A program made the translations under genes and the position numbers. This document shows, one piece after another, positions 4,835 to 33,794 of a DNA stretch of 50,339 nt (positions within the stretch are counted from its first letter, which is position 1; the number at the start of each line of letters is the position of its first letter). Origin of the DNA: a bacterium (GTDB lineage Bacteria > Patescibacteriota > Minisyncoccia > Phycocordibacterales > Phycocordibacteraceae). The notes below the pieces were generated by a model. The model did no database searches. It was not told the DNA's origin and was given only the letters and a program-made list of their open reading frames with translations. Location: NCBI GenBank assembly GCA_021836725.1, contig JAKBHL010000005.1, positions 1 through 50,339 of the forward strand, in the 5' to 3' direction.

Positions 4835-4964
4835 AACCCATTTCAAAACCCCCGCTCGGGTGTACGACAGAAAGGAGTACGCCGTCTTTTTGTACTCAAA
4901 AAGCGGCTCGTACTCGCGCCGCCGCGCTCCGTAAGCCTCTTTCTGCCGCACACCCTTCGCGGGG
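4832..4964. repeat. Dispersed structured element, copy 1
   Basis: TAGAACCC...CCCCGCTCGGGTGTACGACAGAAAGGAG[core]CTCTTTCTGCCGCACACCCTTCGCGGGG; homologous to copies at 13488 (reverse), 33602 and 43213; begins at the gyrA TAG. Confidence 0.9.
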
Positions 4965-4985
4965 AGATTGAGTCTTGAGCTGGGG

Positions 4986-5012
4986 ATCTCCTAAGATGTC
5001 ATCTTAGGAGAT
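4986..5012. repeat. Short perfect palindrome with 3-nt loop
   Basis: ATCTCCTAAGAT-GTC-ATCTTAGGAGAT, 12-bp stem; a variant lies at 43353-43371. Confidence 0.7.
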
Positions 5013-5076
5013 TGAAGCTCCCGCTCGTGTTGATTGCGCGGCCCGGAGCGTTCCGCGTGTGGTATTTTGTCTGTAC

Positions 5077-5613: not shown

Positions 5614-5616
5614 TCT

Positions 5617-6921
5617 ATGAAAATCTCACTCTTTCAAGGCATTCTCTTCAGCGTCTTCGGTCTTGGCGCGCTCATCGGCCTCTTCGTTTTCTCGACGTAC
5701 ACGAATACCGGCAGTAACAAGAGCGCCGTCGGCACGGTCGTCATCTGGGGCACGCTCCCGAAAGATGAGCTGCACTCGGTCCTTACCGCCATGACGCAGA
5801 CCACCACAAGCCTGAAAGACGTCTCGTACGTGCAGAAAAATCCGGCGACGCTACCGTCTGATCTGGCTGCCGCCATAGCAACGGGCGCGGCGCCGGACCT
5901 CGTCCTCGCTTCGCAGGAGGATCTCCACACGCTCTCGAAATTCATCGCTCCGCTGCCGCCCTCGACGCTTTCGGCAAGCACCTTCTTGAACACGTTTGTC
6001 GCCGAGGGAGGGCTTTTTGCGGCGCCGAACGGCGGCTACTACGGCATACCGTTTCTCGTCGACCCGCTCGTACTCTTTTCAAATCAATCCATCCTTTCCT
6101 CCGACGCTATCGCGAACCCGCCTGCGACGTGGGACGCGCTCATGGGACTCGTGCCGAAGGTCGCGCAGCTGACGCCGTCGCAGCAGATCACTCGCGGCCT
6201 TATCGCGCTTGGCACCTATGACAACGTCCATGATGCGCGCGGGATACTTTCCGCGCTCTTTCTCCAGGCCGGCGTGCCGCTCTCCAGATACTCCTCCGGT
6301 GGCGCTCTCGTCGCCGACCTCGGCGAGAGCAGTTCGAATACCGTCCCGCCCGGGCAATCGGTCGTCGGTTTCTACACGCAATTTGCCGACCCCTCGAAAG
6401 TTTCCTATACCTGGAACGCCTCTCTGCCGGATTCTCAGCAGATGTTTCTCGCGGGGAATCTCGCGCTCTACCTCGGCTACGCTTCCGAAGCGCAGTACCT
6501 GCAGGCGGCAAACCCGAACCTCAATTTTGAGGTCACCCCGCTGCCACAGCCGGCGACCGCTTCGACGAAAGTCACGTACGGCCTCGTCTACGCGTTCATG
6601 ATCCCGCGCGGCGCGAAGAATCCCGCGGGCGCCTATCAAGCCGCCTCGCTTCTGACCGGCTCCTCCGCACAGGCCGCCGCCGCTCTCGCGACCGGACTCG
6701 CGCCGGCAGTGCGCAGCGACCTCGCATCCGCGCCTGCCAATCCCATTGCCGCCGTAGCGTATGACGAGGCGCTCTATGCCGAGGGGTGGCTGTCCCCAGC
6801 ACCCGCCGACACCAACCGGGTTTTCTCGAGTATGATTAACGACGTGATAAGCGGCCGCTCAACTCTGGATACCGCGCTCGTTTCCGCCGCGAGCACGTTA
6901 AGCTCGCTCCTACAGAAATGA
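5617..6921 (+). CDS. Extracellular solute-binding protein (sugar-binding type), N-terminally anchored
   Basis: N-terminal TM helix, VVIWG, APDLV, YGIPFLVDPLVLFSN, PPATWD, FLAGNLALY. Confidence 0.75.
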   Translation: MKISLFQGILFSVFGLGALIGLFVFSTYTNTGSNKSAVGTVVIWGTLPKDELHSVLTAMTQTTTSLKDVSYVQKNPATLPSDLAAAIATGAAPDLVLASQEDLHTLSKFIAPLPPSTLSASTFLNTFVAEGGLFAAPNGGYYGIPFLVDPLVLFSNQSILSSDAIANPPATWDALMGLVPKVAQLTPSQQITRGLIALGTYDNVHDARGILSALFLQAGVPLSRYSSGGALVADLGESSSNTVPPGQSVVGFYTQFADPSKVSYTWNASLPDSQQMFLAGNLALYLGYASEAQYLQAANPNLNFEVTPLPQPATASTKVTYGLVYAFMIPRGAKNPAGAYQAASLLTGSSAQAAAALATGLAPAVRSDLASAPANPIAAVAYDEALYAEGWLSPAPADTNRVFSSMINDVISGRSTLDTALVSAASTLSSLLQK

Positions 6922-7469
6922 CCATGCGCCCTTTCATCCTCGCCGCATTCGCCCTCTTTGCCCTCACGCTCGCGCCTGCGGCGCTCGCGCAAACCGTACT
7001 ACCTCCTCCGGGCGGCTCTTGCCACTCCGATAGCGATTGCCCGCCGTGGCATTTTTGTAGTTCTATTACCAAGACCTGTACCCCGGATTCGGTCCAAACA
7101 ACCCCCTCTCCAACACAATCGACCGGAAACGGGACTCCGACTCAATCAACCGGAAACTCGTCAAATCCCTCTACCTCCGGTTCCGGCCAGAACACGACTC
7201 TCATCAATCCGCTTGGCGCGGGTACGAGCCTTCCGGTCCTTCTGAAAGACATCTTGCAACTCATCGTGCAGGTCGGCACCGTTGTCATCGTCCTCATGCT
7301 GGTGTACGTCGGTTTCCTCTTCGTGACGGCGCGCGGGGAGCCGGGCAAGATTACGGCCGCGCGCACGGCGCTCCTGTGGACGGTCGTCGGCGCCCTGATC
7401 CTTCTTGGAGCGCAGGCGATATCGCTTGGCATCCAGTCCACGGTGCAGGCGCTCTCGACCGGCCCTTAG
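6918..7469 (+). CDS. VirB2/TrbC-like pilin 1 with Cys-rich module and T/S/P linker
   Basis: Signal peptide, CHSDSDCPPWHFC...C, two PTQSTGN repeats, LINPLG, two TM helices joined by TARGEPGKITAARTALLWTVVG. Confidence 0.75.
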   Translation: MTMRPFILAAFALFALTLAPAALAQTVLPPPGGSCHSDSDCPPWHFCSSITKTCTPDSVQTTPSPTQSTGNGTPTQSTGNSSNPSTSGSGQNTTLINPLGAGTSLPVLLKDILQLIVQVGTVVIVLMLVYVGFLFVTARGEPGKITAARTALLWTVVGALILLGAQAISLGIQSTVQALSTGP

Positions 7470-7470
7470 T

Positions 7471-7734
7471 ATGACCTTCGCTCAATTTGTCGGCAGCGGC
7501 ACCACCGGCATCATCGGCGCTCTGAACACCGTCGTCGTGCCGTTCATTTTCGCGCTCGCCTTCGCCTCATTCATCTGGGGCGTCGCGAATTATTTTTTTC
7601 TTCATGGCGGGGAAGACAAGAGCCGCGAAGAAGGGAAGCAATTCATCCTGTGGGGCATCCTCGGCATGGTGGTGCTCTTTTCCGTCTGGGGGCTGGTGAA
7701 TATGCTGTTATCCACGCTCGGCATCGCGCCCTGA
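7471..7734 (+). CDS. VirB2/TrbC-like pilin 2
   Basis: PFIFALAFASFIWGV...GGEDKSREEGKQFILWGILGMVVLFSVWGLV hairpin motif. Confidence 0.75.
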   Translation: MTFAQFVGSGTTGIIGALNTVVVPFIFALAFASFIWGVANYFFLHGGEDKSREEGKQFILWGILGMVVLFSVWGLVNMLLSTLGIAP

Positions 7735-7759
7735 GCATAACGTGTCATACTTACCCTAT

Positions 7760-8203
7760 ATGAAATCCATCACCCGCCTCGCTTCCGCGCTCGTTGTCCT
7801 CATCGCGCTCGTTCTCCCGTCCGCGGCCTTTGCGTACACGTCTCTCTATTCGGGCCCGGGCGGTTTCGGGTTCAGCAACGGCCATTTCTCGATCGCGTTC
7901 GGGTCGGGCGCCATGTGCGGCAATACTGTCTGCCAGGTCGCGACCACCATCCTCTATCTCATCAATTCGGTCTTAGTACCGCTCCTCTTCGCTATCGCTT
8001 TCATCATGTTCCTCTACGGAGTCGCTAGGGCGTATATTTTTTCCGGCGGTGATGCCGCGAAGAGAGAGGAAGGCCATAAGCTCATCCTCTGGGGCATCAT
8101 CGGTTTCGTCGTGATGGTATCGCTCTGGGGCCTCGTCAACATCGTTGCAAACACGTTCGGGCTCGCGGGCTACGGCGCACCACCGTTGCCGACATCGTAT
8201 TAG
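7760..8203 (+). CDS. VirB2/TrbC-like pilin 3
   Basis: Signal peptide (AFA), PLLFAIAFIMFLYGV...KREEGHKLILWGIIGFVVMVSLWGLV. Confidence 0.75.
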   Translation: MKSITRLASALVVLIALVLPSAAFAYTSLYSGPGGFGFSNGHFSIAFGSGAMCGNTVCQVATTILYLINSVLVPLLFAIAFIMFLYGVARAYIFSGGDAAKREEGHKLILWGIIGFVVMVSLWGLVNIVANTFGLAGYGAPPLPTSY

Positions 8204-8214
8204 CAAAAACTACC

Positions 8215-8514
8215 ATGGGTGGCATCAACACATCATATTTGCAGGGTTACGCGAGCAGCGTCATCGGCATCATCAACGGCCTCTTCGTGCCGGTGCTCAT
8301 CTCCATCGCCTTCATTACGTTCCTTTGGGGCGTCTACAAGTACTTTATCGCCGGCGCGGCGAGCGATACCGAGCGCGAAGAGGGTCGGAAATTCATCCTC
8401 TGGGGCATCATCGGTTTCGTCGTCATCTTCTCCGTCTGGGGACTCGTCGGAATTGTCGGCAGCACGCTCGGCCTTTCGCCGGGCGGCGGTCCGCCTTCCT
8501 ACCCGACACTCTAA
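8215..8514 (+). CDS. VirB2/TrbC-like pilin 4
   Basis: PVLISIAFITFLWGV...EREEGRKFILWGIIGFVVIFSVWGLV. Confidence 0.75.
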   Translation: MGGINTSYLQGYASSVIGIINGLFVPVLISIAFITFLWGVYKYFIAGAASDTEREEGRKFILWGIIGFVVIFSVWGLVGIVGSTLGLSPGGGPPSYPTL

Positions 8515-8542
8515 TGCTATCCACACACATCGCCGCAGGATA

Positions 8543-8570
8543 TTGACCGGAGCCGCAGGAAAGTTACAAT
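8543..8570 (+). promoter_or_regulatory. Sigma70-like promoter upstream of pilin 5
   Basis: TTGACC-16 nt-TACAAT; GCCGCAGGA direct repeats at 8532-8540 and 8552-8560. Confidence 0.55.
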
Positions 8571-8596
8571 TACCCCGTTATTCCTTTATCTATCCT

Positions 8597-8971
8597 ATGA
8601 AAAAAGCCCTTGCTTTCACCGCCCTCACGCTCTCCGTTTTCGCGCCACTCGTTTCTTTCGCCGCCATCAACAATGTTTCAGACGTCGGTTCGCTCATCAT
8701 CAATACGATCAATAACGTCGTCGTACCGGTTCTTTTCGCCATCGCATTCATCGTCTTCCTCTGGGGCGCGTTCAATGCTTTCATCCTCGGCGCCAATTCC
8801 GATGATGTGAAGGAGAAGGGCAAGAACCTCATGCTCTGGGGCCTTATCGGCTTCTTCGTGATGGTCTCGATCTGGGGCCTCGTGAACATCCTCACCGGCA
8901 CCATCAGCTTCGGCAACAACACAGGACCGACCGGCGGCACGCCGAAGGCGGGCGTCCAGATCGGCGGCTAA
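8597..8971 (+). CDS. VirB2/TrbC-like pilin 5
   Basis: Signal peptide MKKALAF...SFA, PVLFAIAFIVFLWGA...KEKGKNLMLWGLIGFFVMVSIWGLV. Confidence 0.75.
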   Translation: MKKALAFTALTLSVFAPLVSFAAINNVSDVGSLIINTINNVVVPVLFAIAFIVFLWGAFNAFILGANSDDVKEKGKNLMLWGLIGFFVMVSIWGLVNILTGTISFGNNTGPTGGTPKAGVQIGG

Positions 8972-8983
8972 CCCTCCCGTTTC

Positions 8984-9244
8984 GTGAACGCATTCCTCGC
9001 GAGGGTCGTCACGCAGGTTATCAATCCGATTATCCTGCTTCTGGCCGCCGGCGCATTCGTGGTGTTCCTGTGGGGCGTGTTTGAGTTCATCGTACACGCA
9101 GGTGACGAGACGAAACGCAAAGAGGGCAGGAACGGTATCTTTTGGGGCCTCATCGGCCTGGTAATCATCTTCGGCGCATACGGCATCATTAATACGGTGC
9201 TCAATACGTTCAACCTGCCGCCGATCCAAAAAATCTCGCAATAA
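8984..9244 (+). CDS. VirB2/TrbC-like pilin 6
   Basis: GTG start; INPIILLLAAGAFVVFLWGV...AGDETKRKEGRNGIFWGLIG. Confidence 0.72.
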   Translation: MNAFLARVVTQVINPIILLLAAGAFVVFLWGVFEFIVHAGDETKRKEGRNGIFWGLIGLVIIFGAYGIINTVLNTFNLPPIQKISQ

Positions 9245-9279
9245 TAAATAATGGAAGACGGTGAGGAGGGGAAATAAAA

Positions 9280-9305
9280 AAGGCCGCACATTGCTGTGCG
9301 GCCTT
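9280..9305 (-). terminator. Intrinsic terminator for the SPFH operon, possibly bidirectional
   Basis: AAGGCCGCACA-TTGC-TGTGCGGCCTT preceded by an A-run on the + strand (U-tail on the - strand). Confidence 0.75.
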
Positions 9306-9335
9306 CGCCCAAAGAACATCCGGAGTACGTCGAAA

Positions 9336-10091
9336 CTACTTTTCACCGGCTCGAGCATACGCGTAAGAGGCAAGCAGAGGAACATCGCTGTCATTGTGTG
9401 CGTACGATCCGACGATGTTTCCGTCAGAGCAAGGATCGCTCGGATCGCCGACGGTACCGATGTGCCCGTTTGCGTACACGCAACGGACGGTGAATCCGCT
9501 TCCGCCCCACACGACATGGCCTTGGTCAAGACCGCGCACAAGGACCGAATCGCCATGAGCAGGAACTTTTACCGTCGGCCATTTTGACTGATCAAGGTGC
9601 CATGCCCGTGGCAGGTTCGGCGTATCTCGCGGGAAGGGTCGGTTGAATCCTTCTCGTGAGGCGTGCAGGGCCGTTGTGATTCCGAGCCCGCTTGCGACCC
9701 ACATTCCTACCGGAAAACCGACGAAGAGCATGAACATCACTCTCGTCAGCGCCTTCTGGAGCGTCTTTTTCGTCGGCTCCTTCTTGACGGTGAGTTCGAT
9801 GACAAGCCACGCAATGGCCAAGAAGACGAGGAGTGGAAGCCAGTGATGCCAGCTCCAGCTCCCCACATCGCTCGGACGCGGGATCAGGGAAGTGTAAAAT
9901 CCCCAATAGGCCACGACTGCGAGAGAGACAACCACGACCAATCCGATAAAGAGCGGTCGAGTGAATATTCCCCGAAGCCCCGCAATTCGCGTCCCCACTC
10001 CTCCTGTCTTGATTTTGGGAGACGCGACAGCCAGGACTACGAACACCAAGGAAACTACCAGACCCGCAATCGCCCACGCGAAGTTATTCAT
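9336..10091 (-). CDS. Multi-pass membrane protein, hypothetical
   Basis: About 4 TM helices plus a soluble C-terminal domain; AAGGAG SD; 8-nt overlap with the SPFH gene end. Confidence 0.65.
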   Translation of the reverse strand: MNNFAWAIAGLVVSLVFVVLAVASPKIKTGGVGTRIAGLRGIFTRPLFIGLVVVVSLAVVAYWGFYTSLIPRPSDVGSWSWHHWLPLLVFLAIAWLVIELTVKKEPTKKTLQKALTRVMFMLFVGFPVGMWVASGLGITTALHASREGFNRPFPRDTPNLPRAWHLDQSKWPTVKVPAHGDSVLVRGLDQGHVVWGGSGFTVRCVYANGHIGTVGDPSDPCSDGNIVGSYAHNDSDVPLLASYAYARAGEK

Positions 10092-11004
10092 GGCCGTCTC
10101 CTTCTTTTCCGTTTCCGCCCAAGTTGATGTTGCCAAGAATGCCCTTCAAACCTTCTCCGACGAGCACCATTTGCGGTTGTATCTTCGGGAGAGTGTCGAG
10201 ACTGCGCAGAGTCCTATACATCTCCCAAGCCTTGTCGAGGGAGGTATCAAGACCGGTCTGAACCGCCAAAATTGGCTTCCAGTAACCGACCGCCTCAGCT
10301 TCTAGTTCGGATGCCAGTTTTTCACCTTCGAGTTTTTTCAGTCGCAGATCTATCACCGATTGCGGCAATTCAATGTCCTCGATGACGAGGCGTCCTTTGT
10401 CACTTGGGACGTACGCTCCGATTTCCGCCAGTCCCGGTTCGACGATTTCCATCGTCTCCTCGGCGATGTTACCGCGTCCCTTGCTTGCCGCGTCAATGTC
10501 TAGTGCCTGCAGACGCGGACGCAGTGCGCCATCGACAAGAGCGTACACCCTATCTTCAGGTTTTTCGTACTTGTAAACCCACAGCTTGACCGCTTCGGTG
10601 AGCTTCTCCCAGTTTTCACTTCCCACGACCGCATCTTCGGGTTTACCGATCCGATACCAGAACTTCACCACGACCGGTGCTGAAGCACCATCCGCGAAGT
10701 CAATGTCCGTCTTACGTTCATCGGCGTACAGCTGGTACTCTTTCCCGCGCATATCGCTGATTCCTCTGCGAATTCGGTCGACACCGATGACTCGGACGTT
10801 CCATCCACGGAAATAAACGGTTTGATATTTGCCAAGCCGTTCGATGACCGCGTACTGCTGTTGCTCCAAGATGATCGTTCCCTGGAAAATGCAGAACCCG
10901 ATCCAAGCGAATGCAAGACCGAATCCCATTCCCCAGAGGCCAAGAGCATTGCAGACGACGATTGCTACGGCCGCAGGGCCGCCCCAGATGATTGTCCGCC
11001 ACAT
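10084..11004 (-). CDS. SPFH/Band-7 domain membrane protein
   Basis: TM helices, then QQQYAVIERLGKY...GWN, LVIEDIELPQSV and a coiled tail; AGGAG SD. Confidence 0.8.
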   Translation of the reverse strand: MWRTIIWGGPAAVAIVVCNALGLWGMGFGLAFAWIGFCIFQGTIILEQQQYAVIERLGKYQTVYFRGWNVRVIGVDRIRRGISDMRGKEYQLYADERKTDIDFADGASAPVVVKFWYRIGKPEDAVVGSENWEKLTEAVKLWVYKYEKPEDRVYALVDGALRPRLQALDIDAASKGRGNIAEETMEIVEPGLAEIGAYVPSDKGRLVIEDIELPQSVIDLRLKKLEGEKLASELEAEAVGYWKPILAVQTGLDTSLDKAWEMYRTLRSLDTLPKIQPQMVLVGEGLKGILGNINLGGNGKEGDGHE

Positions 11005-11053
11005 GATGTTTCTCCTCGTATTGAGCAGTGCAAAGGCCTGCTTTCCGCACTCC

Positions 11054-11081
11054 ATGATACAGAAAACTGAAGAAAAGTCAA
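11054..11081 (-). promoter_or_regulatory. Sigma70-like promoter for the SPFH operon
   Basis: TTGACT-16 nt-TATCAT on the - strand, directly after the tRNA-Leu 3' end. Confidence 0.55.
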
Positions 11082-11082
11082 G

Positions 11083-11164
11083 TGCTGGGGGAGAGACTCG
11101 AACTCTCATCCCGTGAGGGGCCAGATCCTAAGTCTGGTGCGTCTACCAGTTTCGCCACCCCAGC
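11083..11164 (-). tRNA. tRNA-Leu(TAG)
   Basis: GCTGGGG acceptor stem, CCAGA-CTTAGGA-TCTGG anticodon arm, long variable arm, GTTCGAGTC. Confidence 0.95.
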
Positions 11165-11288
11165 ATGTTGAAACAATACTATGGTCTGCTATATTTTTCC
11201 TAACGCGCCTATATCTTCGAAGACTCGATGTAGGCGGCCCGTTCGGAGCAACAATCCGAACGAGGGTGTTCGTTCCTTGTCCTCACTC

Positions 11289-11361
11289 GCGCCTATAGCT
11301 CAGTTGGTAGAGCAGCTCCCTCTTAAGGAGACGGTCCCTGGTTCGAGCCCAGGTAGGCGCA
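11289..11361 (+). tRNA. tRNA-Lys(CTT)
   Basis: GCGCCTA-TAGCTCAGTTGGTAGAGC, loop CTCTTAA, GGTTCGAGCCC, TAGGCGC-A. Confidence 0.95.
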
Positions 11362-11466
11362 CCGAAACGTACCGCGCATAGAGAGTCCTGTTCAAGACAC
11401 AAACAAACTTGAATATCGTGCGTACTAATGAATGCCTGGCGCATTTATCCGTTTATCCACACACTT

Positions 11467-12123
11467 ATGGCATCACACGCACGAAAAATTATCGTTATCG
11501 GCGCCGCAGGGGTCGCGCTCGCGGCCGCGGGAGTACTGCCCTCCTACGTATTTGCGGCATCGGAGTCGCCGACGCATATCTCCTCGGCAATTCATCGCCG
11601 CTTGAGGTTCGAGCATTTTGGGACGGTATCGGCAGTGGCCGATTCTTCCATCACGCTCGCTACGAAAAAGGGTACGACCCTCACAGTTGACGTGCAGAAT
11701 GCGAAGATCATGAAAGCTGGCGCCACCGTTCCGCTCGCCACGGTAGCGGTCGGCGATCCGATTGCCGTCCTTGGCCCGGCGCACGGGACTACCATCGATG
11801 CGCGTACCGTGTTCGATAAGCCCACCGCTCGACTCGAGCACCGGCTTGAACGCCGATGGGAGCGTCATCACGGCGCTGTCATCGGCGGGACGATAGCGAC
11901 GATTTCTTCCGGGGAATTTACGCTCGTACCCAAAAGTCATCCCGGCCGCCCGGCTCGGCCGTCGGTCATGATCGATACGAATGCAACGACCGTCGTAACG
12001 CACGCAGGCCAGCCGGTGCCTTTTAGCGCGCTTGGAGTCAACTCCGAAGTGATCGTATCCGGCACGCGCGAAGCGAAGGGCACGCTCATCGCCAGCAAGA
12101 TCATCATCCGTAATCGCCAGTAA
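11467..12123 (+). CDS. Secreted protein with two OB-fold-like repeats (DUF5666-like)
   Basis: Signal peptide; two repeats of the form G-T-V/I-x-x-V/I...T-L...(V/L)-x-V-(G/N)-(D/S)-x-(I/V)-x-V-x-G...A-x-x-(V/I). Confidence 0.6.
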   Translation: MASHARKIIVIGAAGVALAAAGVLPSYVFAASESPTHISSAIHRRLRFEHFGTVSAVADSSITLATKKGTTLTVDVQNAKIMKAGATVPLATVAVGDPIAVLGPAHGTTIDARTVFDKPTARLEHRLERRWERHHGAVIGGTIATISSGEFTLVPKSHPGRPARPSVMIDTNATTVVTHAGQPVPFSALGVNSEVIVSGTREAKGTLIASKIIIRNRQ

Positions 12124-12150
12124 TTCGCGATTCGATAATCGGTTTGCGGT

Positions 12151-13032
12151 TTAAGCGAGCACACCCTCATGTACGCGTGAGGGTGTGCTCGCTTCCGCCG
12201 CATATGTACTGGTGTACTGCGCGAACCGCGCTATCAGATCGCGCGTGAGGGGGCCGGGCGCTCCGGAACCGATGGCACGTCCGTCAACCGAGACGATGGG
12301 CACGATGTCCTTGAAGGATGATGTGATGAACGCTTCATCGGCGTCGAAAAACGCGGAAAGCGGCACCGCTTGCTCGAGCGTCCGATACGCTTCGTGTGCG
12401 CGTTCAAGCACGACTTTTCTCGTGATGCCCTTGAGCACGTCGACATCCGGCGTGATGACAGTACCGTTCTTCACCATGAAGACATTGCTCGTTGCGCACT
12501 CCAGCACCCGATCGCCGCTTGTGTAGAGGATCTCGATTGCGCCGGCGGCTTTCCGTTTTTCTTGGAGCATGACCGCCGTGATGTAGTGGATAGACTTCAC
12601 TTCCGGCATAAAGCGCTGGTACTCGTGCGTGATGAGGGAAGCGCCGCGCTCGTACAGTTCCGGAGGCAGGGAAGCGTGCGGCGCGGCGGTTATGAAAAAC
12701 GTCTCCCGTCCGGGTACGTGTTCAAGGCCGCCGAGAGCTTCTCCGCCGGTGAGAAGCATGCGAAGGCTCGCCCGTGTTCCGTCCGTGTTGCGCCCGATAA
12801 GCGTACGCATGGCGTTTCTCGCCTCGTCTTTCGTGCAGGGGATGACAAGCCCGAGCGTATTCGCAGACCTCTGGAACCGCTCCCAATGGTCATCGAAACG
12901 AAACGGTTCTCCGGAAAAAGAAGTGAGTCCTTCATAGATGCCGAATCCGCGCAAAATTCCGAGATCAAGTACGCCGACTTTCGCCTCGCCAAGCGGCAAG
13001 AGCGCACCATTGAGGTAACAGAGCGGAGTCAT
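12151..13032 (-). CDS. Aminotransferase class IV (branched-chain/D-amino-acid type)
   Basis: DLGILRGFGIYEGL, HWERF, PLP Lys in EVKSIHY, ECATSNVF, LKGITR, ADEAFITSS. Confidence 0.88.
   Translation of the reverse strand: MTPLCYLNGALLPLGEAKVGVLDLGILRGFGIYEGLTSFSGEPFRFDDHWERFQRSANTLGLVIPCTKDEARNAMRTLIGRNTDGTRASLRMLLTGGEALGGLEHVPGRETFFITAAPHASLPPELYERGASLITHEYQRFMPEVKSIHYITAVMLQEKRKAAGAIEILYTSGDRVLECATSNVFMVKNGTVITPDVDVLKGITRKVVLERAHEAYRTLEQAVPLSAFFDADEAFITSSFKDIVPIVSVDGRAIGSGAPGPLTRDLIARFAQYTSTYAAEASTPSRVHEGVLA
12153..12194. terminator. 17-bp hairpin between convergent genes, inside the aminotransferase 3' end
   Basis: AAGCGAGCACACCCTCA-TGTACGCG-TGAGGGTGTGCTCGCTT. Confidence 0.6.
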
Positions 13033-13121
13033 CGTTGCCAGCAACTATACCAATAATATCGGGGATAATGAACAGGGAGCGGCAGCCATTGCTGTGTGGG
13101 ATGATATAGTAGAGGAGCCTT

Positions 13122-13490
13122 ATGGAATCGAATACTGTCATCGAGACGGAGAATCCTAAAAATCCGTCCGTAATTCCCGATTGTCTCGCGAGCGCCGTGC
13201 GCCATGCGTCCGCAGACGATGACCGAGACGCCCGCCTGCGCGTCCACCTTGAAAGCGGCGATTATTTTTCATTCCTCGCCACGATCTTCGGCTTCGTCGA
13301 AGATATTTGCGTCGAACATGAGCGGAAAAGTTATGCCACAGCGCCGATGACTTCCGAGGCCTTGCAAAAGCTCCGCAGCGACCTCATCTATCTCCAGCAC
13401 CACTACCATATTTCAAAAAATAAAACGTCCGCGCCAGACGCATTGCTCGACAGGACCGCAGTGTGCAATCACACACTCCGACAAACGTAG
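13122..13490 (+). CDS. Hypothetical protein
   Basis: 122-aa ORF with GAGGAG SD; its TAG stop is the first 3 nt of repeat copy 2. Confidence 0.6.
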   Translation: MESNTVIETENPKNPSVIPDCLASAVRHASADDDRDARLRVHLESGDYFSFLATIFGFVEDICVEHERKSYATAPMTSEALQKLRSDLIYLQHHYHISKNKTSAPDALLDRTAVCNHTLRQT

Positions 13491-13644
13491 AACCCTTTTA
13501 GAACTCCCGCTTCCCCGCGAGGTGTGTGCGGCAGAAAGAGGCTTACGGAGCGCGACGGCGTAAGTTCGAGCCGCTTTTAGAGCAGAAAAAGACGGCGTAC
13601 TCCTTTCTGTCGCATACCCGAGCGGGGGGTTGAGATGGGTTCTA
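13488..13644. repeat. Dispersed structured element, copy 2 (inverted orientation)
   Basis: Reverse complement matches copies 1, 3 and 4; bounded by TAGAACCC (13488) and GGGTTCTA (13637-13644). Confidence 0.9.
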
Positions 13645-13653
13645 GAAAGAAAG

Positions 13654-13742
13654 TACCAAGGGTGAGACTCGAACTCACATGAAGGTTTTTAGGCCCTCTC
13701 AGGATTTTAAGTCCTGTGCGTCTACCATTCCGCCACCTTGGC
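13654..13742 (-). tRNA. tRNA-Leu(TAA)
   Basis: GCCAAGG acceptor stem, CAGGA-CTTAAAA-TCCTG anticodon arm, long variable arm, GTTCGAGTC. Confidence 0.93.
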
Positions 13743-13823
13743 GCACACCCTTAGTTCTACCACAACGGGATTCCCGCTGCGCAAGTTATGCTCGCGCGCG
13801 CCCGCTTCTTTGCAGTTCAGATA

Positions 13824-13898
13824 TGGAGGCCCGGGAGGGATTCGCACCCTCGCATAACGGTTTTGCAGACCGTCGCGTTGCTTCTTCGCCACCGGGCC
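13824..13898 (-). tRNA. tRNA-Cys(GCA)
   Basis: GGCCCGG acceptor stem, ACGGT-CTGCAAA-ACCGT anticodon arm, U73 and encoded CCA; atypical T-loop GGTGCGAATCC. Confidence 0.9.
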
Positions 13899-13912
13899 GT
13901 TCTCTGATGATA

Positions 13913-14260
13913 CTAATTTTTAGAGGATTCGCCCATAGGCGCGCCGTTTTGTTCGCGATTGTCGAGAAGAAAGTCGATGCGCGGGAGCGGGCGCACTCGC
14001 GCGTGCGATTTCAAATGATCCGAGAACGCCTTGCGTTGCCGCTCAAGGAATGCGAGCGCCGCGTGCGCTTTGTCCTCGGGAAAGACGCTCACGAAAACCA
14101 TGATGCGATCGCCGTGCGCGACGGACTCTGCGCGGATGACCGTGATGAGCGATTCGCTGCCGGCTTCGCGCGCGATGAACAGCGCCGCCTCCCGCGCAAC
14201 AATTTCGGCCGCACGGTCGCCATGCCGGTTCCCTCCGTTCTGATTTCCGGCAGCGCTCAT
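13913..14260 (-). CDS. rbfA: Ribosome-binding factor A
   Basis: REAALFI...LITVIR...VFVSVFP...PRIDFLLD; 4-nt overlap directly downstream of infB. Confidence 0.8.
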   Translation of the reverse strand: MSAAGNQNGGNRHGDRAAEIVAREAALFIAREAGSESLITVIRAESVAHGDRIMVFVSVFPEDKAHAALAFLERQRKAFSDHLKSHARVRPLPRIDFLLDNREQNGAPMGESSKN

Positions 14261-15726
14261 GATTTTGCGGCGGAGAAAGCGACAAGTTCGTCGCCGGACG
14301 CCGCGTCCGTCCGCGTCTCGATCTCGGTACCGAAATCGCCATCGGTCTTTATCTCTTTCACGTCCGCTCGCGCTTGCTGGAGATTCGTGATGCTCCCGCG
14401 CGCGACTTCCTCGCCGTGCCGCAGTATCTTCACCCGATCACCGGTGGTGAAAGTACCGGATGCGTACCGAACGCCGAGCACCTGTTTCTTTGCGCCGGAG
14501 GAAAAAGTCCGGAGCACGATTCCGCGTCCGAGCTCCTTTTCAACGGCCGCTCTCGGTATGCGCGCCGCCAGAAGCTCGGATATCTTTTCCGAGAGTTCAT
14601 AGATGATGGGAAAAGAGAGTATGGCGACGGCATCGCGTTGCGCGAGTTCGCGGGCGATAGGGTCCGTCCCGACATTGAACGCGATAACGGTGGCGCCGGA
14701 CGCGTATGCCGTCTTGATATCGTTCTCGGAAATGGTGCCGACGCCCGAGGCGACGATGCGGATTGCGGCGCGTTCATCGGCGATTTTCGCCAGCTCATGA
14801 TTGATCGCATCAACCGACCCCGCGACATCCGCCTTTATGACAAGCGGAAGCGACGCAACGCCTTCGGCCGGGGCGCCCTGATGGTGCGGCGCGGCGAGTG
14901 CCTTTGCGTTTGCCGCCGCGAGCATCTCCGCTTCTTTCTTGCTTTTTACGGTGCTAAAGAGCGCTCCGGAGGGCGGCAGCTTATTGAAGCCGGAAACCCG
15001 CGCCGGTTCGGACGCTCCGGCGCGCGCCGTGCGCGCGCCGCGGAAGTCTTCGATGAAGCGTATGGGAGCATACGCGTCGCCCGCAACCACGAAACCCGGC
15101 GTCACGAGCGTGCCGTCTTTCACTATGAGCGTCGCCGATGCGCCGCGTTTCGGATCCTGCGTCGATTCGAGCACGAAACCGCTCGCGGGAAGCGACGGGT
15201 CAGCGGTGATTTCAGCGAGGTCGGCGGCGAGAAGGACGAGGTCGAGCAGCTCCGGCACCCCCGCGCCGGTTTTTGAAGATATGGGGGCATAGGCGACATC
15301 GCCGCCCAGCCCCTCAAGGAATATTTCATGCTCCAGAAGGGAGGTCTTCGCGCGTTCCACATCGGCGTTGTTCTTGTCGATTTTAGTTATCGCGATGATG
15401 AACGGGATTCCCGCTTCCTTGATCGCCGCGAGCGCATCAAGCGTCTGGGGCATCACGCCTTCGTCCGCCGCCACGACCAGGATAGCGATATCCGCGGCGG
15501 CCGCGCCGCGCGTGCGGAGCGCCTTGAAAGCTTCGTGTCCGGGCGTATCGAGGAAAGTGACGAAACGGCCGTTATGTTCGGCGATATAGGCGGCGACGTG
15601 CTGGGTGATGCCGCCCGCTTCGCCCGCGACGATATTCGCTTTCCGGATGTAATCAAGAAGCGACGACTTTCCATGGTCTATGTGGCCCATCACCGCGATG
15701 ACGGGCGGTCGTGGTACCCGCGCCAT
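14257..15726 (-). CDS. infB: Translation initiation factor IF-2 (no N-terminal domain)
   Basis: RPPVIAVMGHIDHGKSSLLD, EAGGITQH, FLDTPGHEAF, TKID, IKADVAGS. Confidence 0.95.
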   Translation of the reverse strand: MARVPRPPVIAVMGHIDHGKSSLLDYIRKANIVAGEAGGITQHVAAYIAEHNGRFVTFLDTPGHEAFKALRTRGAAAADIAILVVAADEGVMPQTLDALAAIKEAGIPFIIAITKIDKNNADVERAKTSLLEHEIFLEGLGGDVAYAPISSKTGAGVPELLDLVLLAADLAEITADPSLPASGFVLESTQDPKRGASATLIVKDGTLVTPGFVVAGDAYAPIRFIEDFRGARTARAGASEPARVSGFNKLPPSGALFSTVKSKKEAEMLAAANAKALAAPHHQGAPAEGVASLPLVIKADVAGSVDAINHELAKIADERAAIRIVASGVGTISENDIKTAYASGATVIAFNVGTDPIARELAQRDAVAILSFPIIYELSEKISELLAARIPRAAVEKELGRGIVLRTFSSGAKKQVLGVRYASGTFTTGDRVKILRHGEEVARGSITNLQQARADVKEIKTDGDFGTEIETRTDAASGDELVAFSAAKS

Positions 15727-15781
15727 AAGAGCTCCATTTCATCACAAAAATGACGCGTTCGCAATCGTGTAGAATCAGTAC

Positions 15782-16915
15782 ATGCTTTGGCGCAGGAGGA
15801 CCTATCTTGACCGCGCTGCGGGAGCGGCGGGGAACCCGTCGTCGCCGCACGAGGAAGGCCGGCGCGCGAAAGCGATGCTCGAGAACGCCCGTACGGACAT
15901 AGCGCGGCTTGTCGAAGTGCGAAGCGATGACGTCATCTTCACGAGCGGCGCGACGGAAAGCAATGCGCTCGCGATCCTCGGACACGTGCGCGAGCGCCGC
16001 CGCGGCGCGTCCGGAGGAACGCATGCCTTGTATCTGCCGACTGCGCACGCGTCGATCGTCGAGAACATGCAATTGCTCGCTGCGGATGGAGTTCTGGTCG
16101 AGACGCTGCCGATACAGGGCGGGCGGGTCGATACCGACAGGCTGGCGGACATGCTGCGCCGCGAGACAGTGCTCGTTTCCATGGATGCGGTTTGCGGCGA
16201 GACGGGAATCGTGTGGAATACGCGCGAAGTCGCGCAGGTGCTCCAGAATGCGCCCGGCGGCTTTGCCGCCGGGCGCGTTCTGCTGCACGTTGATGCGAGC
16301 CAAGCGCCGCTTACCGAAAAAATCACGCGGACGCACTTCGGCGCCGACCTGCTGACGCTCGATGCTTCAAAAGTCGGTGTAACGCGGGGTATCGGTGCGC
16401 TTGTGGCGCACCGCACGATCGCGATCGCTCCGCTCTACAGGGGCGGCGGACAGGAACGCGCGCTGCGAAGCGGCACCGAGGCGCCCGAACTCGCGCAAAG
16501 CTTTGCGGCGGCGCTTCGCGCCGCCGTCTCGGGTCGTGCAGCGTTTCGCGCCGCCGCAAAACGGGACCGGGCGGTTCTCATCCGCGTCATCACAGACACG
16601 ATCCCAAACGTATACATACAAGAGGGTCGCGCTCAGGCGCCGCATATCCTCAACCTTTCTTTCCCGGGGCGAGATACCGATTATCTTGTCGCGCTCCTTG
16701 ACGAAGCTGGATTCGCGGTCTCGACGCGCAGCGCGTGCGAGACGGATTCGCAGGACGGTTCGCGCGCCGTCTTTGCGTTGACCGGCGACCGGGAACGCGC
16801 CCGCGCGACGCTGCGTATTTCCTGGGATTCGCGCGTCCGCTCACGCTCGCTTGCCCGTTTTGCTGCGGCGCTTGCGCGAGCGGTCGCATTTATTGACACC
16901 ACGGGCTGTCGGTAG
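15782..16915 (+). CDS. Cysteine desulfurase (IscS/NifS-like, class V aminotransferase)
   Basis: GNPSS, FTSGATESN, HVDASQ, PLP Lys in DASK, GGGQE..LRSGT, catalytic Cys in STRSAC. Confidence 0.85.
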   Translation: MLWRRRTYLDRAAGAAGNPSSPHEEGRRAKAMLENARTDIARLVEVRSDDVIFTSGATESNALAILGHVRERRRGASGGTHALYLPTAHASIVENMQLLAADGVLVETLPIQGGRVDTDRLADMLRRETVLVSMDAVCGETGIVWNTREVAQVLQNAPGGFAAGRVLLHVDASQAPLTEKITRTHFGADLLTLDASKVGVTRGIGALVAHRTIAIAPLYRGGGQERALRSGTEAPELAQSFAAALRAAVSGRAAFRAAAKRDRAVLIRVITDTIPNVYIQEGRAQAPHILNLSFPGRDTDYLVALLDEAGFAVSTRSACETDSQDGSRAVFALTGDRERARATLRISWDSRVRSRSLARFAAALARAVAFIDTTGCR

Positions 16916-16930
16916 CATTATATATAGACC

Positions 16931-17707
16931 ATGAATATAGAAGAGCTTTCGAAATCTCAACTCATACTGCTCACAATTCTCGTGAATTTCGTCACCTCGG
17001 TCGCGACGGGTATTTTGACAGTGTCGCTTTTGGACCATGCTCCGGCTTTTGTTACCCAGACGGTGAATCGTGTCGTCGAACACACCATTGAGACGGTAGC
17101 GCAAGTCGCCCCCGCGGCGGCTATTTCGGCGCCCGCGCCGTCCAATCAGGACCTCGTCACCGCCGCTCTCGGAGCGGATGCGACGCGCGTCGCCGCGCTC
17201 TACTCCGCGACAACCGGCACCTCGACCCCCGCGCTTGCTGTCGGTACGTATCTGCCGAGCGCCCGCGCCGTCGTGACTGCGGCGGAGAACGCTCTTCCGA
17301 AAGAGGTACTCATTGAATTCCCCGACGCCACCTATGTCGCAGCATCGCTCTCGCGCGAGGGTAACGGCGTCATGATTTACGGTTTTGCCGATGCCGCGAA
17401 GCTCCCGAAAGCGCGGGCGCCGGTTCTTGTTGCCGCAAGCAATCTGAAACTCGGCGAAACCGCGCTCGCCATAGGCGCTGACGGGTCTGCCGCCACCGGC
17501 ATCGTCGCGCGCGTCGGCGCCAAGGGCGTCTATACCACGTTGCCGGACATCGGCGCGGGGAGCGCCGTGGTCGATCTTGCCGGCAATCTCATCGGCATCA
17601 GCGCGGGAGTGACACCCGGGCTGCTCATCCCTGCCGATACGGTAGACGCTCTCCTTTCCGCGACCTCGACGGCCTCCGCAACGACCTCGACGTCCACCCC
17701 GTTATAG
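16931..17707 (+). CDS. Membrane-anchored trypsin-like (HtrA-related) protein, probably degenerate
   Basis: N-terminal TM helix, LKLGETALAIG...TGIV, GSAVVDLAGNLIGI; no GNSGGP motif. Confidence 0.55.
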   Translation: MNIEELSKSQLILLTILVNFVTSVATGILTVSLLDHAPAFVTQTVNRVVEHTIETVAQVAPAAAISAPAPSNQDLVTAALGADATRVAALYSATTGTSTPALAVGTYLPSARAVVTAAENALPKEVLIEFPDATYVAASLSREGNGVMIYGFADAAKLPKARAPVLVAASNLKLGETALAIGADGSAATGIVARVGAKGVYTTLPDIGAGSAVVDLAGNLIGISAGVTPGLLIPADTVDALLSATSTASATTSTSTPL

Positions 17708-17713
17708 CTTTAT

Positions 17714-20392
<2,679 letters not shown>

Positions 20393-20402
20393 TTTGCGCT
20401 TC

Positions 20403-20501
20403 GCGGCCCGGCGATTTTTGAGTACGGCGTATTTTCCTGCTGGAAAATCGCCTCGCCCTCGGCTCGTCAGCCTGCGGGAGCCTCAAAAATCGCCGGGCCG
20501 C
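20403..20501. repeat. Diverged fifth member of the structured-element family (same 65-nt core, different perfect 20-bp closing stem)
   Basis: GCGGCCCGGCGATTTTTGAG...CTCAAAAATCGCCGGGCCGC enclosing TACG-GCG-T-ATTTTC-C-TGCT-G-GAAAAT-CGC-CTCG-CCC-TC-GGC-TCGTCA-GCC-TGC-GGG-AGC. Confidence 0.8.
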
Positions 20502-20546
20502 TTTGCTCCATTTGCGAAAAATAGCCTGTTCTGATAGATTTTCCGT

Positions 20547-20702
20547 ATGTCACAAGACCGCCTGCTCAAGCTCAAATCCACGAAATCAAATCACGTCATC
20601 TGGAGCCGCAAGAATAAAAAAACCGTCGAGCGCAAGATCGAGGTCGTGAAATTCGATCCGGTACTCCGCAAGCGCGTCATTTTCAAAGAAACGAAGCGCT
20701 AG
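20547..20702 (+). CDS. rpmG: 50S ribosomal protein L33 (Cys-free form); not in the ORF track
   Basis: Manual translation MSQDRLLKLKSTKSNHVIWSRKNKKTVERKIEVVKFDPVLRKRVIFKETKR. Confidence 0.9.
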   Translation: MSQDRLLKLKSTKSNHVIWSRKNKKTVERKIEVVKFDPVLRKRVIFKETKR

Positions 20703-20744
20703 CGTCAAACGAACACCGCCCGAAAGGGCGGTGTTCGTTTGACG
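20703..20744 (+). terminator. Perfect 19-bp GAAA-tetraloop hairpin after rpmG
   Basis: CGTCAAACGAACACCGCCC-GAAA-GGGCGGTGTTCGTTTGACG. Confidence 0.75.
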
Positions 20745-31437: not shown

Positions 31438-32709
31438 ATGCTCGATATACATTTCATTCGGGAGAACGCCGCTCTCATAAAGGCAGGCGCGACAAAGAAA
31501 CATATGGATGCGGATATCGACGGCCTACTCGCGGTCGACGACGAACGTAAACGGCTGCGGCAAGAACTTGATGCGAAACGCGCGGAACAGAACCGCCGCA
31601 GCAACGAGATCCAGATTGCCAAGGGCGCCGAACGCGAAAAGATAATCGAAGCGATGCAGCACCTGAAAAACGGCATGGCCGAGAGCGAGGAACGTCTGAA
31701 GAACGTGATGCTCGAATGGCAGCGGCTCATGCTCACGGTGCCGAACATTCCCGACATGTCGGTACCGGACGGTGTAGATGATGCGGATAATGTAGAAGTG
31801 AAGAAATGGGGCGAACCGACGGCGTTTGGCTTTGCGCCCAAGGACCACATCGACATAATGACCGCGCTCGACATCGCCGATTTCGGGCGGGGAGCAAAAG
31901 TAGCCGGCTTCCGCGGCTACTTCCTCAAGGGCGACGGCGTCCTCCTCGCCAATGCCGTCTGGCAACTGGCGCTCAAGCACTTTTCCGCGAAAGGGCTTTC
32001 GCCCCTGAGCGTTCCGTCCTTGGTGCGCCGCGAGGCATTTCTCGGCACCGGCTACCTTCCGCAAGGGGAAGACGATCTGTACAAGACCCAAGACGGGGAA
32101 TACCTCGCAGGCACTGCGGAAGTGGCGACGATGGCCTACTACATGAACGAGACCATAGACCTTTCAAAACATCCGGTGCAATTTCTTTCGTTCTCGCCCT
32201 GTTTCCGGCGCGAGGCCGGTGCGCACGGAAAGGACGTGCGCGGCCTCATCCGCGTGCACGAATTTTTCAAATGGGAGCAGGTCGTCCTTTGCAAAGCGGA
32301 ACACGACGAGTCGGTCCGCCTTCACGAGTGGCTCAACCGCAACACCGAAGAGTTCATCGAGCTTCTGGGCATCCCCTATCACACGGTGGCCAACTGCGGC
32401 GGCGACTTGGGCCTCGGACAGGTGAAAAAATATGACATCGAACTGTGGGTTCCCGGAGAGAACACCTATCGCGAGATAAGCTCGGCATCCTATTTCCACG
32501 ATTTCCAGACGCGCCGGCTCAATATCCGCTACCGCGATGCGGAAGGGAATCTCAAATTCGCCCATTCCTTGAATTCCACCGCGATACCGACGCCGCGCAT
32601 CCTGGTTTCGATCATTGAAAATTACCAGCAAGCGGACGGTACGATAAAAGTGCCGGAAGCTCTCGTGCCCTATGTCGGAAAGAGCGTTATCGGCGAAGCG
32701 GGGCGGTGA
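31438..32709 (+). CDS. serS: Serine--tRNA ligase
   Basis: MLDIHFIREN, coiled-coil arm, LAGTAEV, CFRREAG, GLIRVHEF, KKYDIE, EISSAS, HSLNST. Confidence 0.97.
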   Translation: MLDIHFIRENAALIKAGATKKHMDADIDGLLAVDDERKRLRQELDAKRAEQNRRSNEIQIAKGAEREKIIEAMQHLKNGMAESEERLKNVMLEWQRLMLTVPNIPDMSVPDGVDDADNVEVKKWGEPTAFGFAPKDHIDIMTALDIADFGRGAKVAGFRGYFLKGDGVLLANAVWQLALKHFSAKGLSPLSVPSLVRREAFLGTGYLPQGEDDLYKTQDGEYLAGTAEVATMAYYMNETIDLSKHPVQFLSFSPCFRREAGAHGKDVRGLIRVHEFFKWEQVVLCKAEHDESVRLHEWLNRNTEEFIELLGIPYHTVANCGGDLGLGQVKKYDIELWVPGENTYREISSASYFHDFQTRRLNIRYRDAEGNLKFAHSLNSTAIPTPRILVSIIENYQQADGTIKVPEALVPYVGKSVIGEAGR

Positions 32710-33604
32710 GCGGCTCTCAGCGCGGCGGCGCAAGCGCCGCCGCCGCGCATTCATCGCGCTTTGCGCGCTCGTCTTCCTTTTCCTCGGTGCCCTTGTGTAC
32801 GGACTGCAGCAGCCGGGCGTCCGCATTTCACATATCGAGGTCTATGGCGTCGATGCGTCGGCCGCGTCGATAGCGAACGAAGCGATGCGGGGAAGCTATT
32901 TCGGCATCATTCCGCGCAATTCGACTTTTTTCCCGCCCACCGCGCTCATACGCGCAGACCTGCTTGCCGCATATCCCGGGGTAGCCGCAGTATCGATTTT
33001 CAGGAACGGATTTACCGGACTCTCGATCAAGGCAGATCCCCGCACGCCGCTCGCGCGCTGGTGCGGTTCCGCTTCGGCGTCGTCCTCGCCGGAAGATTCG
33101 CCTTTGAAGGAAGTACTACCGGCGGCATCCGGCGATTGCTATCTCTTTGACCCGAGCGGCTTCGTGTATGCGACCGCGACCGAAGCATTTCCTTTCTCGG
33201 GAACCGCTTCATCCTCTTCCGTCGGCGCCGGATCAAATCCGGACCAAACGCTCGTACCGTATGTTCTTTTTGATCCGCTTGCTTCTCCCGCAACCTCGCC
33301 GGTGGGCGCAACGCTCAAAAACGCAAGCCAATTGTCCAGGGTTTTTGATTTTGCGCAGCAAATAGGATTGCTCGGCCCTTCGGTCGGGACCATCGTCATC
33401 CGCGGTCCCGAGGTCGATTTTTTCCTCGCGACTTCCACATACGGCGCTCCCGCCGGATTGCGTATCACCTATCTTCTCGGCGATGAACAGAATGCTCTGA
33501 CCGCGCTCGTTTCCGCAAAAAGCCAGCTTGATCTTTCCGATCCGACTCTCGAATACGTCGATTTGCGTTTTAGCGGAAGGATCTATCTTAAAAAACGGAG
33601 CTAG
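32672..33604 (+). CDS. FtsQ/DivIB-like cell division protein
   Basis: Basic N-terminus, one TM helix, POTRA-like ISHIEVYG, C-terminal EYVDLRFSGRIYLK. Confidence 0.65.
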   Translation: MSERALSAKRGGERLSARRRKRRRRAFIALCALVFLFLGALVYGLQQPGVRISHIEVYGVDASAASIANEAMRGSYFGIIPRNSTFFPPTALIRADLLAAYPGVAAVSIFRNGFTGLSIKADPRTPLARWCGSASASSSPEDSPLKEVLPAASGDCYLFDPSGFVYATATEAFPFSGTASSSSVGAGSNPDQTLVPYVLFDPLASPATSPVGATLKNASQLSRVFDFAQQIGLLGPSVGTIVIRGPEVDFFLATSTYGAPAGLRITYLLGDEQNALTALVSAKSQLDLSDPTLEYVDLRFSGRIYLKKRS

Positions 33605-33741
33605 AATCCATTTCAAACCCCCATTTCCCCGCTCGGGTATGCGACAGAAAGGAGTACGCTGTCTTTTTCTGCTGAAAAAGCAGCTCGTACTCGCGTCGTC
33701 ACGCTCCGTAAGCCTCTTTCTGCCGCATACCTGAGCGGGGG
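33602..33741. repeat. Dispersed structured element, copy 3
   Basis: TAGAATCC...CCCCGCTCGGGTATGCGACAGAAAGGAG[core]CTCTTTCTGCCGCATACCTGAGCGGGG; begins at the TAG of the ftsQ-like gene. Confidence 0.9.
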
Positions 33742-33794
33742 CATTGTGGCAATTCTGGGGTGCCGTGTTAGAACTGTCAGCATAGGACTCTGTT

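Follow-up and report, generated by a model that had tools for sequence, protein, structure and literature searches.

A palindrome between clpB and rpmG as a diverged copy of a structured, probably mobile repeat family of Kaiserbacteria-like Patescibacteria

The window analysed in this work (50,339 nucleotides, positions 1 to 50,339 of contig JAKBHL010000005.1, assembly GCA_021836725.1) carries, between clpB and rpmG, a long palindrome whose centre folds into a three-way junction. This feature is probably a diverged member of a non-autonomous, palindromic family of mobile repeats with a constrained single-strand fold, resembling MITEs (miniature transposable elements with inverted repeats), ERIC and REP sequences, in Kaiserbacteria-like Patescibacteria. 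It is inserted DNA, present in multiple copies, variable between strains and species, and situated in short spacers at the 3' ends of genes; its mobile-repeat nature is well supported, and its core is constrained in sequence as well as in pairing. An earlier note, made from the letters of the window, had proposed an undescribed system. No description was indeed found, but the element is better termed an undescribed family of structured mobile repeats, and its behaviour as such (some 40 near-identical copies, insertion polymorphism, patchy counts, both orientations) had been overlooked.

The element is flanked on one side by the stop codon (20390-20392) of an open reading frame (ORF) of 892 aa (17714-20392), which is ClpB according to its relatives, and on the other by the start codon of rpmG (20547-20549), a short ORF that reads, from its translation, like ribosomal protein L33. 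The nearest named ClpB relatives come from metagenome-assembled genomes labelled Candidatus Kaiserbacteria (88% identity), Paceibacterota and Patescibacteria. Elements of this family consist of an outer stem of about 17-45 bp, copy-specific in sequence yet paired, around a Y-shaped core of 62-66 nt, and a CT(N)CG motif that stands in direct orientation on the two arms often marks the limits of the outer stem. In the clpB copy (Table 1), the core is made up, in order, of stem P1, junction TACG, a P2 hairpin (bulged T, loop TGCT), junction CTCG, stem P3 (internal loop TC/TGC, loop CGTC) and lastly junction AGC; its end motifs were delimited by comparing copies at loci L049, L051, L224, L226, L227 and L229. 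The three-way junction drawn in the earlier note is the minimum-free-energy fold of this copy, with a folding energy of -67 kcal/mol vs -41.5 +/- 3.3 in shuffles (z -7.7, 0/200), and the perfect 20-bp outer helix was found as described. By script count, the core aligns without gaps to that of copy 3 (33652-33716) with 17 differences. Sixteen of these fall in paired columns where the partner has changed too, making the eight compensatory pairs in four helices that had been announced, and the seventeenth is a C to G change inside the internal loop. The loop-closing swap of copy 1 (G-C instead of C-G) is present as well.

Pairing is equally well kept across the family. In the alignment of this genome alone (A2, 22 distinct sequences), 94.1% of cells are paired and two-sided change occurs in 12 of the 20 pairs. 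When relatives are included, the figures are 97.0% and 18/20 pairs for 46 distinct sequences (A3), then 96.7% and 19/20 pairs for 95 (A4), both of these alignments having been fitted to the covariance model. The covariation score was reached by 0/500 shuffles for A2 and likewise for A4, figures that overstate the support, since the copies within a genome and in kin genomes are non-independent; slid controls were 35-50% paired for A2 and 34-61% for A4. Each core pair takes three to five standard pair types. Covariation is thus strong, and the unpaired letters are conserved too: loop and junction letters are 82-99% conserved across the family, in agreement with the unchanged loops and junctions and the conserved single-strand fold claimed from the window. 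The near-fixed letters are junction (Y)ACG, the bulged T, loop TGCT (87-99%), junction CT.C, internal loop TC opposite T(C)C, loop CGTC (89-99%) and junction AG. In the relative G143, the A/T-rich P2 stem has been swapped for G+C-rich stems of other sequence, different in every copy, while the junction strands and P3 are kept. Two further structures were rejected. A rival helix joining columns 1-6 with 36-41, which RNAfold gives as the minimum-free-energy fold of copy 3, shows 0 compensatory changes in 22 distinct sequences and is also broken in diverged copies. Tertiary pairings between loop CGTC and strand TACG, and between loop TGCT and strand AGC, were discarded because loop variants are unmatched by junction changes in A2 and A3.

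The element is multi-copy. In its own genome (616,033 bases in 16 contigs, 98.85% complete), 61 matches were obtained with copy 3 as a DNA query and 56 with the core as an iterated nhmmer query; a covariance model (R1) built on 23 cores (A2) gave 57 at E up to 1 and 55 under stricter filters. The clpB copy, called a fifth copy in the earlier note, is the fifth only when the window alone is counted. About 40 copies are near-identical (86-100% to copy 3) and constitute what is called here the major family, while about 12, including the clpB copy, hold the same core within unrelated, well-paired outer stems; some core variants of this genome stand head to tail, and others beside tRNA genes. Further homologues, whose existence the earlier note had made a point to check, are numerous: R1 found the core in 36 of 61 genomes (own genome included) and in 14 of the 25 genera sampled in the order, at 1 to 28 copies. 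This set consisted of the own genome and 60 relatives, 36 of these from the same genus, and about 24 genomes had no match. Across the class, model R2 found the core in 23 of 151 genomes, own genome included, the others having 1 to 29 copies; among the counts in this sample are 29 (G143), 20 (G149), 15 (G106) and 13 (G205). Copy numbers among relatives are patchy, from 0 to 55, and such patchy, bursty numbers are a pattern typical of mobile DNA. No stretch of viral contigs matched one exact degenerate pattern, a single pattern being a weak test of phage origin.

Several arrangements of the copies were also observed. In G143, cores stand as inverted pairs about 130 nt apart at L188:1369-1566 and six other places. 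In the own genome, a core variant is repeated head to tail with an 88-nt period at two contig ends (L040:1-200 at the start of contig C12, and L042 at the end of C8), which is probably an assembly break inside a longer array. Three core variants are found 34-70 nt past the 3' ends of tRNA-Gly, tRNA-Ser and tRNA-Met (L037, L039 and L038; C12:67878, C12:130686 and C12:158863); on the far side, 15-40 nt of either the tRNA end or the spacer are duplicated, like the joints of integrated elements.

At the clpB site itself, the element behaves as inserted DNA. The clpB-rpmG spacer measures 154 nt in the window vs 27 nt at L077 and 28 nt at L079, the closest relatives compared, and the motif was found in none of 16 Patescibacteria-type clpB loci (E up to 0.01); the idea of a cis-element conserved with clpB or rpmG was rejected for this reason. 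Contigs from two DNA runs of related samples (X3, depth 4.3; X6, depth 2.6) join position 20361 to 20507 via 31 other letters; they represent a diverged allele in which the end of clpB is present and the element (20362-20506) is missing. The direct repeat TTTGC that flanks the element may be a target duplication.

With regard to the neighbouring genes, the element avoids promoter-side spacers and sits at gene 3' ends. On rough gene calls, 19 copies of this genome lie between convergent genes, 15 are co-directional and sense, 13 co-directional and antisense, 4 lie between divergent genes and 5 have one flank missing; the corresponding counts for 55 copies of relatives are 13, 28, 10 and 4. There is thus no preference of orientation in this genome and a sense lean in relatives. 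A location directly after a stop codon, together with a very stable hairpin and with the plain hairpins that fill the equivalent spacer between rpmE and prfA elsewhere, would suit an ordinary intrinsic transcription terminator of clpB. This explanation is nevertheless very improbable: no T tract follows the stem (only three T are present), the consensus terminator scan does not list the clpB copy, a class-wide, sequence-conserved, branched core of 65 nt is foreign to terminators, the closest relatives lack the element after clpB, and the 13 antisense copies of this genome lie between co-directional genes. Three copies (4846-4965, 13512-13631 and 20403-20501) were absent among the 22 terminator-like sites found in 4700-20700. 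By the terminator consensus, the claim of the earlier note that the feature is not a simple terminator is upheld, although the element fills terminator slots.

The rpmE-prfA spacer, which separates the L31 gene from the release-factor gene and holds a core variant in the own genome, was compared at 30 loci (the own genome and 29 further species of the genus, L215-L244). A model-detectable core is present at 7 of the 30, own genome included, with two further cases in G017 and G004. Among the other spacers, some have a related outer stem whose centre is reduced or different, some a plain hairpin rich in G+C or a hairpin that is long and perfect, and two are only 21-24 nt long and hairpin-free; a TATACT-like word stands just before prfA in all the spacers compared. 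As kin spacers hold ordinary 3' hairpins, the element occupies the same slot. With at least five kinds of hairpin, or none, this spacer is a hot spot for the turnover of hairpin elements. Between two of these loci (L226 and L227), the core is identical at 58/62 positions and the arms at 14/18, all four arm changes being compensated, whereas prfA is 83% identical in protein, 78% in DNA and 57% at third codon positions. The core is therefore better kept than the adjacent coding DNA, and the arms drift but stay paired. The identity of the core may be due either to purifying selection or to recent replacement by another copy.

Arm-to-arm copying, i.e., template switching, occurs at quasi-palindromes, and could by itself keep stems complementary. 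The elements might accordingly be DNA palindromes without a selected fold, and hence neutral junk. Compatible with this explanation are the outer stems, perfect or almost so despite their variation from copy to copy (as in G055), the fully compensated arms just described, with no intermediate, the P3b stem of near-identical G055 cores, which occurs in four different paired forms, and the presence of copies in both orientations. We nonetheless judge it improbable, because it leaves unexplained the near-invariant unpaired letters, a core kept at 58/62 against 57% at third codon positions, the direct, non-palindromic CTCG in both arms, and the class-wide retention of the family.

The question of which strand is read gave conflicting evidence overall. 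The earlier note had inferred a polarity in favour of the opposite strand from an excess of A.C mismatches. This excess holds in the outer arms (77 A.C vs 40 G.U in this genome, 89 vs 52 in relatives), where it favours the reverse strand, but not in the 20 core pairs (16 A.C vs 19 G.U). Folding energies point the same way as the arms, the reverse strand folding more stably as RNA for 43/55 copies of relatives and 37/54 here; the given strand is pyrimidine-rich, and its complement is favoured in energy terms by that alone. On the other side, the upstream gene is on the given strand for 41/55 copies in relatives, and CTCG is the most lopsided tetramer of the outer arms (86 occurrences vs 24 of its complement CGAG among 100 distinct elements). 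CTCG occurs in both arms in direct orientation, where it makes a conserved internal loop, and also supplies the P2-P3 junction strand and, within P3, the 5' side of the internal loop; the corresponding end words of clpB-type copies are CTTCG and CTTTG. This asymmetry goes beyond what a palindrome gives by itself, which suggests that something reads one strand.

Alternatively, the core could primarily be a functional RNA module acting in cis at message 3' ends (protein-binding, processing, stabilising, possibly self-cleaving), its spread as a repeat being secondary. This we regard as a possibility, though a rather unlikely one. Helices that covary around fixed loops and junctions, like those of structured RNAs, a core more conserved than flanking coding DNA, the upstream gene on the same strand in 41/55 relatives' copies with a co-directional split of 28 sense to 10 antisense, the single strand picked out by CTCG, and the location of copies where other species have 3' hairpins all argue for it. 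Against it stand the near-even split of co-directional copies in this genome (15 sense vs 13 antisense), the wobble and energy asymmetry in favour of the other strand, the two candidate loop-junction pairings without covariation (A2, A3), the lack of conservation of the post-clpB site in relatives, and the lack of any ribozyme or other Rfam match at E up to 10 beyond long-hairpin look-alikes. Expression is likewise unsupported: the sole RNA run (X7) consists of contigs, at a depth of 0.83 over 20077-20727 and without strand information, and its uncovered part is uninformative on the element.

As a candidate for the mobilising enzyme, the own genome holds a single RAYT-like Y1_Tnp (HUH) ORF of 226 aa (L214:1213-1893, contig C13), with visible HUH and Y motifs. 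Y1_Tnp ORFs of about 220-280 aa are present in 40 of the 61 genomes, and similar ORFs are multi-copy in some relatives with genomes of 0.5-0.7 Mb, reaching as many as 10. Proximity between motif and Y1 genes was not used as an argument, the five or six pairs within 2.4-3.5 kb being about what a rough count gives by chance.

In addition to the non-independence of the copies, the model-fitted alignments and the strand signals in favour of the complement mentioned above, several results weigh against the family being a mobile repeat with a selected fold. No enzyme is tied to the element. The locus of the Y1 gene (3442 nt) holds no motif, the best hit with filters off scoring 7 bits (E 0.67), and the 61 genomes divide into 26 with motif and Y1, 10 with the motif only (among them G055, with 28 copies), 14 with Y1 only and 11 with neither. 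The DDE_3 (IS630-type) domain was not found in the own genome and was found in 1/61; a TnpB-type domain was not found in the own genome and was found in 4/61. Clustering of 793 stop-to-stop ORFs from 85 relatives' loci gave no recurrent neighbour protein beyond housekeeping genes, the largest clusters being peptide release factor (5 loci) and ribonucleotide reductase (4 loci). As regards insertion, the element-free clpB allele is diverged and lacks the TTTGC expected of a duplication, and no empty site was obtained for any major-family copy, so that TA is a putative target duplication only. Lastly, cores may be so alike between species owing to replacement or conversion by other copies, and not to purifying selection.

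From a mechanistic point of view, a non-autonomous mobile repeat would operate as follows. A factor supplied in trans would recognise the fold of one strand, more likely the given strand, and would mobilise or maintain the element; the single HUH/Y1 (RAYT-like) protein of the genome is a candidate. One sub-family of this genome has gained an extra inverted-repeat shell with TA ends and multiplied to about 40 copies; others, such as the clpB copy, are single. Read-through from the upstream gene would make the element the 3' hairpin of the transcript, a niche held by plain terminator hairpins in related species. More speculatively, and in our opinion unlikely, the Y core could be what is active in a mobile element of a new kind in Patescibacteria, as a module of single-stranded RNA or DNA with invariant loops TGCT and CGTC, fixed junctions and four CTCG on the same strand; it would then catalyse a step in its own processing or be the specific scaffold of an enzyme yet to be recognised, and each round of copying would rebuild the variable, always paired outer stem from one of its arms.

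The major family has an architecture of its own. It is a repeat of roughly 155 nt running from GAAC to GTTC, 144-155 nt in 14 of the 16 both-ended copies, the two longer ones containing inserts. These ends lie inside shell ends of about 20 nt that are inverted with respect to each other (terminal inverted repeats); TA precedes GAAC in 21/27 copies and follows GTTC in 15/26. In window copies 1, 3 and 4, TA and the first G of the element form the TAG stop codon of the upstream ORF (Table 1). These shell ends, TA included, also enclose cores in G106, which belongs to another family of the class (L185, L208). A small ATG-led ORF through one major-family copy was rejected, as it is absent from diverged copies.

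Table 1. Positions of the clpB element, its parts and flanks, and of the other copies in the window, which belong to the major family
Feature	Position	Strand	Basis or remark
clpB copy, whole element (CTTCG, 5' arm, core, 3' arm, CTTTG)	20399-20505	+	Letters and comparison with other loci
Outer stem, 5' strand, 20 bp; last three bases GAG = P1 of core	20403-20422	+	Exact reverse complement of 20482-20501
Three-way-junction core, 65 nt	20420-20484	+	R1 87.3 bits, R2 87.9 bits, fold, pair counts
Outer stem, 3' strand	20482-20501	+	Exact reverse complement of 20403-20422
TTTGC direct repeat flanking element	20393-20397 and 20502-20506	+	Letters
Copy 1, core 4875-4939	4832-4965	+	TAG 4832-4834 = stop of ORF 2231-4834; 3' shell replaced by other sequence
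Copy 2, core 13538-13602	13488-13644	-	Full length, each end with TA, directly downstream of tRNA-Leu 13653-13742
Copy 3, core 33652-33716	33602-33741	+	TAG 33602-33604 = stop of ORF 32672-33604
Copy 4, core 43249-43313	43213-43386	+	TAG 43213-43215 = stop of ORF 42880-43215; 3' limit tentative, extra sequence preceding the GGTTCTA end

Further sequences were seen in or next to the copies. A second palindrome, a hairpin of about 26 nt (cctaagatg.catcttagg), lies just 3' of several major-family copies, in the window at 4985-5012 and elsewhere in the flanks of C12:120980, C5:10282, C6:59165 and C12:47770; it seems to be a separate family of repeats, either nested within the first or adjacent to it. 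Four major-family copies (L044:270-420, L043:323-470, L045:294-460 and L034:1576-1720) have the same AT-rich insert of 44-59 nt at a single fixed point of the core's 3' part, another hairpin insert, of about 55 nt, occupies loop L3 at C14:47897 and loop L2 at C7:6544, and a relative (L076) has an insert within the P2 loop. Elsewhere in the window, three to four diverged direct repeats (74-124 nt, 60-71% alike, 311-750 nt apart) lie at 7509-8931 within a run of small + strand ORFs, which suggests tandem paralogous small genes. One contig of the RNA run X7 (depth 166) skips 41 nt (12141-12181) within an inverted repeat of 25 nt (12145-12202) that lies between convergent ORFs; cDNA synthesis may have passed over a hairpin here, or the contig may represent a variant.

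Genomes of Patescibacteria are among the smallest and most streamlined of bacteria, and in this one 56 copies at about 150 nt amount to roughly 1.4% of 616 kb. A core kept throughout the class, and more conserved than the neighbouring ribosomal-protein and release-factor genes, implies that something recognises it; the identity of the recogniser would reveal how mobile DNA moves within uncultured bacteria of this kind, how transcripts are ended or protected, or a new pair of RNA or single-stranded DNA and protein. From a practical point of view, the family supplies the TAG stop codon of upstream genes, and it breaks assemblies at repeats, as contigs join across copies and an array of cores stands at two contig ends. 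The covariance model could be submitted to Rfam.

As for known families, this class-wide family of structured repeats is uncatalogued in Rfam and in the literature searched; in its workings it comes nearest to ERIC, Correia or REP-type elements. A scan of the window with Rfam 15, which took in hammerhead, twister, pistol, hatchet, HEARO, OLE and others, gave seven tRNAs only at gathering thresholds, and at E up to 10 the regions 20380-20520 and 33590-33790 matched miRNA-precursor models only, as long hairpins, the best at 22.3 bits vs a threshold of 114; the expectation of the earlier note that the motif lies outside Rfam was thus borne out. In the literature on Patescibacteria, Parcubacteria and Kaiserbacteria no such repeat or RNA motif was found, although MITE catalogues in supplementary files could list it, and a term search in part of the text of PMC11602168 turned up no such repeat.

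REP sequences are described as single hairpins of 20-40 nt with GTAG or CGTC at one stem end (PMC3733652). They go with RAYT (Y1/HUH) transposases, and their fold is probably recognised as single-stranded DNA, a feature that the present element would share. The present element shares with REP, BIME and REPIN the form of small hairpin repeats 3' of genes, a RAYT-like gene in the genome, the conserved letters CGTC and, in one relative (G143), inverted doublets. It differs by a unit of 100-155 nt, a three-way-junction core in which CGTC is the P3 loop, a RAYT-like gene that is not flanked by the motif, and the lack of a matching Y1 in 10 of the 36 motif-bearing genomes; it is thus neither a single tagged hairpin nor associated with a repeat-flanked RAYT, the features that define REP and REPIN. 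Integron attC sites have conserved outer boxes and a variable centre, in cassette arrays beside an integrase. Here, by contrast, the centre is conserved, the arms are variable and the copies are dispersed by housekeeping genes, no integrase search having been made. The HEARO and omega RNAs of IS200/IS605 elements offer a parallel, as structured non-coding modules that become multi-copy by riding a mobile element, but the present motif has no Rfam match, no TnpB-type domain in the genome and no adjacent nuclease gene found.

With MITEs (reviewed in PMC10969869), the elements have in common that they are small, non-coding, preferentially intergenic and patchy, with inverted-repeat ends and many near-identical copies. 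Terminal inverted repeats are present in the major family, and the single copies have their own perfect stems. Unlike MITEs, they have a conserved part that is internal and structured, and no parent insertion sequence was found; no parent element or transposase with matching ends came to light among the DDE_3 and TnpB domains searched, other transposase families not having been covered. With ERIC and the Correia elements of Neisseria, finally, they share the form of imperfect palindromes, some 100-160 bp long and located in transcribed spacers, copy numbers that vary greatly between related species, sequence inserted at fixed internal places, TA at both ends (as in Correia) and a host genome in which no cognate transposase is found. 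There is no sequence likeness to these repeats, and the present family is distinguished by a branched core with fixed loops, kept class-wide between variable arms in hosts with ultra-small Patescibacteria genomes, which is the reverse of a transposon recognised by its ends.

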